The position numbers and the translations under genes were made by a program. From Escherichia coli (GTDB taxonomy: Bacteria > Pseudomonadota > Gammaproteobacteria > Enterobacterales > Enterobacteriaceae): 773 nt of DNA. The notes under the pieces were generated by a model. The model did not search any database. It worked only from the letters and a program-made list of their open reading frames with translations, and was not told where the DNA came from. Of the stretch, positions 1 through 773 are shown one piece after another; the first letter of the stretch is position 1; each line of letters starts with the position of its first letter. Location: assembly GCF_003334765.1 (NCBI RefSeq), contig NZ_QOWT01000100.1; one strand, 5' to 3'.

Positions 1-773
1 CACATGCTGAGGGTGCTGTCCGGGTGCAGCTCCGGGTCGGGCAGGCGGTTACCTGCCGGGTCTGTGGCATACGGGATGCGGATATCCAGATTCGCTGCGG
101 TGGTGTGAACGCCGGTCAGCCTGCCGGTGGTGCTGTAGCTGTAACTCCGGGTCTGGCGCGGGCTGCTGATGCGGATGAGTTCGCCGTTGTCGTTCCAGGT
201 GTAATCGCGGTCAGACAGCAGGCTGTTCAGGTGCTGGCTCTGTAACTGCCCGGCAGGGGTATAAGCGGTGGTGAGTTCATAACGGCCGAAGCTGCGCAGC
301 GTTTCCCGGTGCAGGCGGTCGCGGGTGTACTCCACCAGCGGTGTGTCGCCGAGTTTCATGCCTGACAGCCAGCCGCTGCCGTAGGTCAGCCATTCCACGG
401 CGGGCAGGCTGTCCGGTATACAGCGGTTCGCCAGTCCCTGTGCGTTGTACGCATGTCTGGTCTCATGCTGCCAGAGCAGTTCATTCGTCTGCGGATGATG
501 CACCGTCAGGTGTTCACTGGCGAGGCGGCCTTTACTGTCATAACCATAGTGCACCGTCACCCGGTGCCCTTCGCTGATATGGCTGATGTCTGTCAGCCAG
601 CCGCGTTCGTCATACTGCCACCGCTCTGCGGTTTCGCCATTCACGGTGCGGTGCGTGAGGCGGTCTGCTTCGTCATAGTGCCAGTGGGTGACCAGCCCCT
701 CATCCTCGCTGCGGATAAGTTTGCCGGTCAGGTCGTGGTGATAACGCTGTGTGCGGCCGTCAAAGCCGGTTTC
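1..773 (-). CDS. rhs: Rhs-family core protein (YD-repeat polymorphic-toxin scaffold), internal fragment; both ends lie outside the window
   Basis: Seen in sequence: the reverse-complement frame with codons at 773..771 down to 5..3 is open for all 257 codons (nt 1-2 are a partial codon). The translation carries repeated YD-repeat motifs, e.g. WHYDEADRLT, WQYDERGWLT, HYGYDSKGRL, YTWNDNGELI, YSYSTTGRLT, YATDPAGNRL, and is rich in Y, D, G, R, T and H. Third codon positions are mostly G/C. Established knowledge: this motif array defines the Rhs / YD-repeat shell family. Assignment to the enterobacterial Rhs core is by recall, not a database search; the paralog (rhsA/B/C/D-like) cannot be resolved, so the symbol is given at family level only. 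Confidence 0.9.
42..743 (-). repeat. Tandem YD-repeat array at protein level, about 21-22 codons per unit, at least 10 units
   Basis: Seen in sequence: anchor tyrosines fall at protein residues 11, 33, 54, 78, 109, 131, 149, 171, 191, 213 and 235 (residue i occupies nt 774-3i to 776-3i), mostly 20-24 residues apart, each followed by a D/N-x-x-G-(R)-L-like segment. Nucleotide echoes of the repeat exist, e.g. ttcgtcata at 606-614 and 669-677 (63 nt apart, encoding YDE on the minus strand). Boundaries of the array are approximate and it probably continues beyond both window edges. Confidence 0.75.

Follow-up and report, generated by a model that had tools for sequence, protein, structure and literature searches.

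Short direct repeats in an Escherichia coli rhsC core segment and the deletion alleles found at them

We analyzed a stretch of 773 nucleotides (nt) from Escherichia coli (RefSeq assembly GCF_003334765.1, contig NZ_QOWT01000100.1; hereafter, the window) that encodes part of the Rhs protein RhsC and contains short direct repeats. An earlier note on this DNA had interpreted the repeats as the signature of a beta-hairpin shell of YD repeats, and as potential substrates for slippage or misassembly. By megablast against 5,426 complete genomes of E. coli, the window is 100% identical to rhsC of K-12 over all 773 bases, and so are the rhsC genes of many other strains. Matches were found in 3,901 of the 5,426 genomes, at a median of 5 places per genome. 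As described below, some of the short repeats are also the end points of deletions in the rhs genes of other isolates.

The window lies within rhsC, which is 4,194 nt long in the K-12 record, and is 62.1% guanine plus cytosine (GC). Minus frame 0 has no stops in 257 codons and each other frame has 2-13 stops. The window's gene has the same setting as in K-12, where the order is kdpFABC, ybfA, rhsC, ybfB, an orphan core fragment, ybfC, and the ISAs1/H-repeat. (The small open reading frame ybfB overlaps the stop of rhsC; the orphan tip and ybfC come next.) Against the family model for RHS core proteins (RHS_core, NF041261), K-12 RhsC scores 2,680 bits across model positions 1-1261, and the equivalog cut-off is 2,000 bits. 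The earlier note advised keeping the repeats in mind when judging whether this copy is intact. There is no sign of damage; the window is identical to an intact gene that scores above that cut-off. The window is an intact stretch of ordinary K-12 rhsC, with no hidden element on either strand, and its annotation can be considered settled.

To identify the YD units, we seeded a hidden Markov model (HMM) with units from the window itself and iterated it over the whole RhsC protein. Within the window it recovered 11 units, at intervals of 20, 22, 23, 31, 21, 22, 21, 20, 20, and 26 residues (Table 1), and it recovered 17 more in the rest of RhsC. The anchor tyrosines are at residues 11, 33, 54, 76/78, 109, 131, 149, 171, 191, 211/213, and 235. 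Pairs of tyrosines at a lag of 20-23 residues are in excess (9 observed, versus 2.6 +/- 1.5 in shuffles; P = 0.00065), which agrees with the earlier claim of a tyrosine about every 21-22 residues. However, the spacings range from 20 to 31, and the periodicity is approximate, not strict. Within the window, ungapped BLOSUM62 autocorrelation of the protein peaked at z = 3.0, below the family-wise threshold of 3.53, and comparing the window's protein to itself with blastp gave no off-diagonal high-scoring segment pairs. In full-length RhsC, the autocorrelation is significant (z = 5.1 at lag 21, 4.6 at lag 62, and 3.8 at lag 42). We relied on tyrosine spacing and the HMM because blastp and autocorrelation are too blunt for units of variable length that are 16% identical. 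When the units are aligned in register, their amino acid identity is 16%, versus 6.6% for random in-frame segments, and their nucleotide identity is 36.8%, versus 29.0% (P < 0.0005).

Table 1. Features of the window. Bits in the rows for YD units are scores from the self-seeded HMM; "strands" are from the predicted structure, and ranges in the remarks on YD units are residues of the window's protein.
Feature	Position	Strand	Remarks
Internal rhsC coding segment	1..773	minus	Residues 667-923 of the 1,397-amino-acid RhsC; open throughout
YD unit 1 (QRYHHDLTGKLIRSED)	702..749	minus	11.3 bits; Pfam RHS_repeat 14-48; model strands E10-13/E19-24
YD unit 2 (THWHYDEADRLTHRTV)	642..689	minus	16.8 bits; model strands E27-33/E39-44
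YD unit 3 (RWQYDERGWLTDISH)	579..623	minus	15.2 bits; Pfam RHS_repeat 54-88; strands E47-54/E60-67
YD unit 4 (VHYGYDSKGRLASEHLT)	504..554	minus	16.3 bits; strands E70-78/E84-92
Degenerate YD unit 5 (TRHAYNAQGLANRCIP)	414..461	minus	6.6 bits; pairs with a Tse5 unit; model low-confidence from residue 112
Degenerate YD unit 6 (VEWLTYGSGWLSGMKL)	351..398	minus	6.1 bits; W128, L129, Y131, G132, and G134 invariant versus Tse5 and 8qja
Degenerate YD unit 7 (EYTRDRLHRETLR)	294..332	minus	2.0 bits, weak; R151, D152, H155, and R156 invariant in the alignment
Degenerate YD unit 8 (TAYTPAGQLQSQHLN)	225..269	minus	8.0 bits; strands E165-171/E177-182
YD unit 9 (RDYTWNDNGELIRISS)	162..209	minus	9.2 bits; Pfam RHS_repeat 193-226
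YD unit 10 (RSYSYSTTGRLTGVHTT)	99..149	minus	11.2 bits; strands E207-213/E219-226
YD unit 11 (YATDPAGNRLPDPEL)	27..71	minus	4.6 bits; aligned to YRYDAAGNRL of Tse5
Direct repeat, 63-nt pair, copy 1 (TTCGTCATAcTGCCA; WQYDE)	606..620	unstranded	In register with copy 2; end point of 63-nt deletion (rhsC of LR-17-1)
Direct repeat, 63-nt pair, copy 2 (TTCGTCATAgTGCCA; WHYDE)	669..683	unstranded	1 base different from 606-620
Direct repeat, 51-nt pair, copy 1 (TGCACCGTCA; LTVH)	499..508	unstranded	Out of register; end point of 51-nt deletion (RhsF-locus core of strain 789)
Direct repeat, 51-nt pair, copy 2 (TGCACCGTCA; VTVH)	550..559	unstranded	One base changed in rhsA and rhsB
Direct repeat, 93-nt pair, copy 1 (GATGCGGAT; IRI)	75..83	unstranded	End point of 93-nt in-frame deletion (XPFI_3_2, YJR, GCA_052037505.1)
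Direct repeat, 93-nt pair, copy 2 (GATGCGGAT; IRI)	168..176	unstranded	
Direct repeat, 91-nt out-of-frame pair, copy 1 (CCGGGTCTG)	56..64	unstranded	End point of 91-nt deletion in 3 genomes (5 places)
Direct repeat, 91-nt out-of-frame pair, copy 2 (CCGGGTCTG)	147..155	unstranded	
Edge of duplicated core segment	1..77	unstranded	Exact second match in the rhsC locus; 5' edge of the 1,045-nt copy

Profiles for known families also recognize these units, as the earlier note had expected. RHS_repeat (PF05593) matches the window three times (residues 14-48, 193-226, and 54-88; E from 6e-5 to 3e-3); the score from the YD-repeat model TIGR01643 is 33.2 bits (cut-off, 15.8); and NF041261 matches the window by itself with 541.7 bits, at model positions 675-937. 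The curated repeat models cover about 5 of the 11 units, and units 5-8 were detected by the self-seeded HMM only. Outside the window, the same gene encodes further RHS repeats, a Rhs-associated core domain (TIGR03696) at residues 1170-1247, and a match to PF03527. RhsC also contains the autoproteolysis motif DPIGx18DPLG at 1221-1246 (DPIG at 1221 and DPLG at 1243; the motif DPxGx18DPxG is defined in PMC10684867). The N-terminal part of RhsC has DUF6531 at 46-123 (E = 1e-17) and a weak match to PAAR_motif (E = 0.21).

Among proteins with solved structures, residues 1-246 of the window's protein match Tse5 (8cp6) at E = 1e-20, and there are also matches to 8qja, Tse15, RhsP, and RhsA (phmmer); no Rhs protein from E. 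coli was among the solved structures that were matched. The degenerate units 5-8 align with canonical units in the solved Rhs cocoons. We built an AlphaFold2 model of the window from an alignment of five sequences. The mean predicted local distance difference test (pLDDT) score was 68.5, with values of 77-88 over residues 10-110. The model has 21 alternating strands; each anchor tyrosine ends a strand and is separated from the partner strand by a five-residue turn. When we compared this model to the Protein Data Bank with Foldseek, the 34 best matches were all Rhs, Tc-BC, or teneurin shells. Tse5 itself forms a barrel of 40 hairpins with the consensus YDXXGRLV, in which DXXGR forms the hairpin turn and the tyrosine faces the cavity (PMC10684867). 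Together, the profiles and the predicted fold support the earlier note's assignment to a YD shell: the window encodes 11 consecutive YD units of the Rhs beta-hairpin shell, on the minus strand. In each unit, the first strand would end at the anchor tyrosine or an aromatic substitute, followed by a turn of the form D-x-x-G-R/x, and the second strand would run from a conserved leucine. Successive hairpins would extend a beta-sheet that spirals into the Rhs cocoon around the C-terminal toxin.

The gene family, its YD repeats, and the shell fold are already known and are textbook material. Among the short nucleotide repeats within the coding region, TTCGTCATA occurs at 606-614 and at 669-677, each time within a 15-mer; a single base separates the two 15-mers, whose minus-strand translations are WQYDE and WHYDE. 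GCACCGTCA occurs at 500-508 and at 551-559; it encodes T-V-H both times and can be extended to 10 nt. The earlier note had described both pairs accurately, including the coordinates, the one-base difference, and the encoded residues. The T-V-H pair joins strand 1 and strand 2 of one hairpin and is not in register. In rhsA and rhsB, the upstream T-V-H copy reads AVH and the repeat is absent, which makes it specific to certain alleles.

The window contains 14 maximal exact direct repeats of at least 9 nt. We would expect 2.0 from dinucleotide shuffles, 3.0 from codon shuffles, 4.9 from synonymous shuffles that keep the protein (P <= 0.001 for each), and 3.6-5.0 from 3-periodic Markov models of order 2-3 (also P <= 0.001). 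Ten of them keep the reading frame and 4 do not. Only 3 are in the same register of the YD units (YDE/YDE, GWL/GWL, and SL/SL), and the other 11 are not. Nucleotide autocorrelation in the window shows no periodicity (at lag 63, z = 1.9, below the threshold of 3.65), and Tandem Repeats Finder (TRF) reported no array with a period of 60-66 nt in the window. With no detectable period and with 37% nucleotide identity in register, the window is not like a minisatellite. The units lack tandem periodicity in the DNA because they are old and diverged (16% amino acid identity and 37% nucleotide identity in register). The expectation that nucleotide repeats would be a periodic signature of the shell does not hold for this DNA; within the window, a self-comparison shows no periodic off-diagonal signal at the nucleotide level or by blastp, and autocorrelation of the protein becomes significant, at lag 21, in full-length RhsC. 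The exact repeats are faint residues of motif recurrence and composition, not a periodic DNA signature. The sole repeat that TRF did report has 2.3 copies with a period of 11-12 nt, at positions 11-37 (GGGTGCAGCTCC; score 40); it is located where PDPELHPD is encoded, a short way upstream of the core's hyperconserved end.

To ask if the repeats are sites of deletion, we took each close pair, predicted the sequence that would result from a deletion that keeps one copy, and searched for the junction in the 5,426 complete genomes with megablast. We limited the flanks around the junction to lengths at which a normal allele is unable to seed a match (15-16 nt for the 51- and 93-nt pairs). With flanks of 18-19 nt the search was uninformative, since it merged the two 28-nt halves of a normal allele into a single place with full coverage. 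As positive controls, the normal alleles were found at 7,015, 5,086, and 11,230 searchable places. Because an exact seed of 28 nt is required, the counts of deletion alleles are lower bounds.

The predicted deletions exist for both of the pairs in the earlier note, whose suggestion that they could be substrates for slippage is thus borne out. For the 63-nt pair (606-620/669-683), which is in frame, the junction is present in one genome, from strain LR-17-1. At 4,131 nt, the rhsC of this strain falls 63 nt short of the 4,194 in K-12; the gap is clean, and the gene carries an annotation as intact. The product reads THWHYDERGWL at the junction and is shorter by exactly one unit. For the 51-nt pair (499-508/550-559), also in frame, the junction is present in one genome, in the RhsF-locus core of strain 789.

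Two other pairs gave junctions in more than one genome. The in-frame deletion at the 93-nt pair (75-83/168-176) is found in two complete genomes, XPFI_3_2 and YJR, in the RhsF-locus core. This allele is also in GCA_052037505.1, and its protein has a further GenBank accession (SQM59413.1), so it is present in at least 3 assemblies, and probably in 4. The 93-nt allele carries a second in-frame deletion outside of the window, of 87 nt (29 residues) in the C-terminal core (rhsC nt 3365-3451), and in intact alleles this 87-nt stretch is flanked by an 8-nt direct repeat, GCGGCCTG. The out-of-frame deletion at the 91-nt pair (56-64/147-155) is found at 5 places in 3 genomes, which come from Canada, China, and Korea. 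The three places that we inspected are in rhsF and rhsA loci and are annotated as frameshifted. The presence of this junction at multiple loci suggests recurrent slippage, or else spread between paralogous cores by gene conversion. NZ_CP159152.1 and NZ_CP097001.1 each have the 91-nt junction at two places, and the inspected places are at different loci (rhsF and rhsA).

At all of these junctions, one copy of the repeat is kept (TATGACGAA for the 63-nt deletion, GACGGTGCA for 51 nt, ATCCGCATC for 93 nt, CCGGGTCTG for 91 nt, and GCGGCCTG for 87 nt). In the same 5,426 genomes, there were no matches to a control 63-nt deletion whose junction was moved off the repeats, without microhomology; no matches to the alternative crossover product of the 63-nt pair; and no junction for the in-frame 228-nt pair (366-376/594-604), which is the longest repeat (11 nt). 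Across just six pairs, junctions were found at spacings of 51, 63, 91, and 93 nt, and not at 115 or 228 nt. Because thousands of normal copies were searchable in the positive controls, the deletion events are rare, at about 1-2 per several thousand copies of the core. A literature search turned up nothing specific on in-frame core deletions in rhs. Another small deletion, of 4 residues, is found in WP_229019979.1, a full-length member of the cluster, at RhsC residues 228-231; this is in the N-terminal core, outside of the window.

The identity of the gene, the structure of its units, the excess of repeats, and the alleles with exact junctions are direct results of these comparisons; the mechanism that we propose goes beyond them. 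We consider it very likely that the window, as a rhsC core segment with 11 YD units, has an excess of short repeats that act as microhomologies for rare deletions. A minority of the 8-11-nt exact matches would derive from the shared motif (YDE or GWL), and the rest from recurring short peptides and GC-rich codon usage. The matches would have no function of their own, but they do serve as microhomologies at which close direct repeats are occasionally deleted, probably by replication slippage or by template switching without RecA. That short direct repeats in E. coli can undergo such deletion, independently of RecA and in a manner sensitive to proximity, is established (PMC7145654, PMC5426353), and its frequency drops steeply with the distance between the repeats (PMC7145654). 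The in-frame deletions take out roughly one hairpin (17, 21, or 31 residues) and keep the gene open, while the out-of-frame one yields a pseudogene.

Several results weigh against this explanation. The central part of the structural model (residues 112-141) is predicted with low confidence (pLDDT below 50). A single exact pair of 9-mers is at the level of chance, as there are about 2.0 pairs per dinucleotide shuffle, and the blastn self-matches, with E values of 0.11-1.8, are at chance level for each repeat. A periodic Markov null of order 4 predicts 8.1 repeats, which makes the excess marginal (P = 0.04); this null was overfitted, as it was trained on the same gene. The 63- and 51-nt alleles are singletons, on one contig each, and might be artefacts. 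Finally, in the 5,426 genomes, the junction for the out-of-frame 115-nt pair (30-38/145-153) is absent and there is no match to the duplication junction of the 63-nt pair.

Some of these results would be expected if the short repeats were a coincidence of composition in GC-rich coding DNA that says nothing about homology among the units. The lack of register for 11 of the 14 repeats and the lack of frame for 4 of them would fit, as would the weak blastn self-matches (best E = 0.11), the lack of nucleotide periodicity, the loss of the T-V-H pair in rhsA and rhsB, and the shrinking of the excess as the order of the null model goes up. But the count exceeds every null from dinucleotide, codon, and synonymous shuffles through periodic Markov models of order 2/3 (P <= 0.001), the WxYDE, GWL, and SL pairs are in register, and the units are more similar to each other in register than random segments are (36.8% versus 29.0% nucleotide identity, P < 0.0005). 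We therefore doubt that composition is the whole story, although it has a reasonable chance of being so. A narrower proposal is that the WxYDE 15-mers are the product of a recent event, either duplication or gene conversion between units 2 and 3, rather than of ancient conservation of the motif. The two units are neighbors with an offset of exactly 21 codons, and no other pair in the window is as similar (64% nucleotide and 43% amino acid identity over 14 codons, versus means of 37% and 16%). However, identity collapses beyond the 15 nt; in Tse5 and 8qja, each of the two has its own diverged counterpart, which implies that both predate the enterobacterial core; and the counterparts in RhsD are WYYDE and WQYDG. 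A recent event is highly improbable.

The deletion alleles could also be artefacts of assembly, cloning, or sequencing, instead of mutations that arose in cells. This might seem plausible for the two alleles that are known from a single contig each, as multi-copy Rhs cores are notorious for breaking draft assemblies and many "partial" Rhs proteins are in the same clusters. But the allele with both the 93- and 87-nt deletions is in two complete genomes and in GCA_052037505.1, and has a separate accession (SQM59413.1); the 91-nt allele is in three genomes from Canada, China, and Korea and at two different loci; exactly one copy of the repeat is kept at every junction, as slippage predicts; and microhomologies of 8-10 nt should be far below the k-mer or overlap lengths of assemblers. 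We think that an artefact is quite unlikely, and we retain the explanation that the repeats are microhomologies for deletion in natural E. coli.

These comparisons add a small new detail: deletions in natural E. coli do end at microhomologies between YD units, and they yield both open, shortened genes and pseudogenes. The detail is of mild use to anyone who has to decide if a short Rhs core is genuine or an assembly error, and the natural hairpin-deletion variants may be of interest for structural work on Rhs shells. A bolder idea is that the Rhs cocoon tolerates the loss of single hairpins, and that in-frame deletions give shortened shells that still function; this is unlikely in our opinion. 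On this idea, such shells would result from the in-frame deletions of 17, 21, and 31 residues, and from the double deletion of 31 and 29 residues that is inherited across several strains. If hairpin loss were tolerated, then close in-frame microhomologies between YD units would be a natural route for variation in the size of the shell, and the alleles would be an existing deletion series with which to find the number of hairpins that a cocoon requires.

Long repeats in the rhs cores are another matter. Recombination at "rearrangement hot spot" (Rhs) sequences was reportedly described by Lin, Capage and Hill in 1984. The window is 96.0% identical to rhsA and rhsB of K-12 (31 mismatches in 773 nt, ungapped; the longest stretch of exact identity is 364 nt), with the mismatches clustered around residues 72-100 (VTVHYGYDSKGRLASEHL versus VAVHYRYDEKGRLTGERQ). 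It is 77-78% identical to rhsD and rhsE, which have an insertion of 7 codons (SMAGSNA) after RSFG. An exact second copy of positions 1-77 of the window lies 1,871 nt downstream, still within the rhsC locus (at 4130-4206 of the locus sequence; the longer copy spans 3163-4206). There, the orphan "RHS repeat-associated core" fragment, upstream of ybfC, opens with a copy of the 3' end of the core (1,045 nt, about 97% identical). At the boundary of the duplicate, the orphan reads GATATCCCG (D-I-P) and the core reads GATATCCGCATCCCG (D-I-R-I-P). It is these long core repeats that gave rhs its name, as a rearrangement hot spot (PMC3150448), and they underlie the displacement model for C-terminal tips (Jackson et al. 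2009, PMC2935791).

The earlier note was also concerned that the short repeats could cause misassembly from short reads. We infer from the k-mer sizes of assemblers that repeats of 9-15 nt are too short to mislead them. The actual hazard for assembly is the multi-copy paralogous cores and orphan core fragments (96-100% identical), not the 9-15-nt repeats. In the protein clusters at 90% identity, which have about 14,000 members each, many members are "partial" Rhs proteins of 200-1,180 residues from draft assemblies, and these partial members are from contigs that broke inside rhs cores. For quality control of genomes, the concern moves from the short repeats to the multi-copy core.

We also considered whether the repeats might have a role at the DNA level, as binding sites or in RNA structure, and dropped this idea: they are inside a conserved open reading frame, out of register, and not conserved among the paralogues. 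The plus strand has open reading frames of 73 (24-245) and 78 (341-577) amino acids, which we treated as antisense artefacts of a coding region with 62% GC; nothing pointed to a gene there, although no search was aimed at one. Long open frames are typical on the strand opposite such a region. Plus-strand frame 2 has just two stops across the window.

As compared to known systems, the window is the same gene as the E. coli RHS core protein of the RhsA-B-C-F subfamily (NF041261; K-12 rhsC or b0700), with no difference. The closest relatives with solved structures are Rhs cocoons of type VI secretion systems: Tse5 from Pseudomonas aeruginosa (8cp6), VgrG-Rhs from A. mimigardefordensis (8qja), Tse15 from A. 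baumannii (8uy4), RhsA from P. protegens (7q97), and Rhs from P. laumondii (7pq5). Over the length of the window, the YD hairpins can be paired one to one with theirs (28-34% identity), the predicted fold agrees with these shells, and the consensus in the window is similarly YDxxGRL[I/T/V] with a DxxGR turn (PMC10684867). Unlike those cocoons, units 5-8 of the window are degenerate: the D is missing, as are the G and R in some places. The YD shells of the BC components of Tc toxins and of teneurins (4igl, 6sue, 6fb3, and others) have the same beta-hairpin spiral fold (Foldseek E of 2e-9 to 2e-6), but they are 12-16% identical to the window and have other delivery systems and other biological roles. 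The deletion alleles resemble the products of RecA-independent deletion between short repeats, in that the end points are in direct repeats of 8-10 nt, one copy is kept, and only pairs that are 51-93 nt apart are affected; here, they are natural alleles that were identified by searching databases. Finally, the displacement of Rhs tips (PMC2935791) involves the same genes, and the window holds the edge of the 1,045-nt core duplicate that is its proposed substrate. Those events use hundreds to thousands of bases of core homology, presumably by homologous recombination, whereas the repeats that we considered here are 9-15 nt long and lie within one gene.

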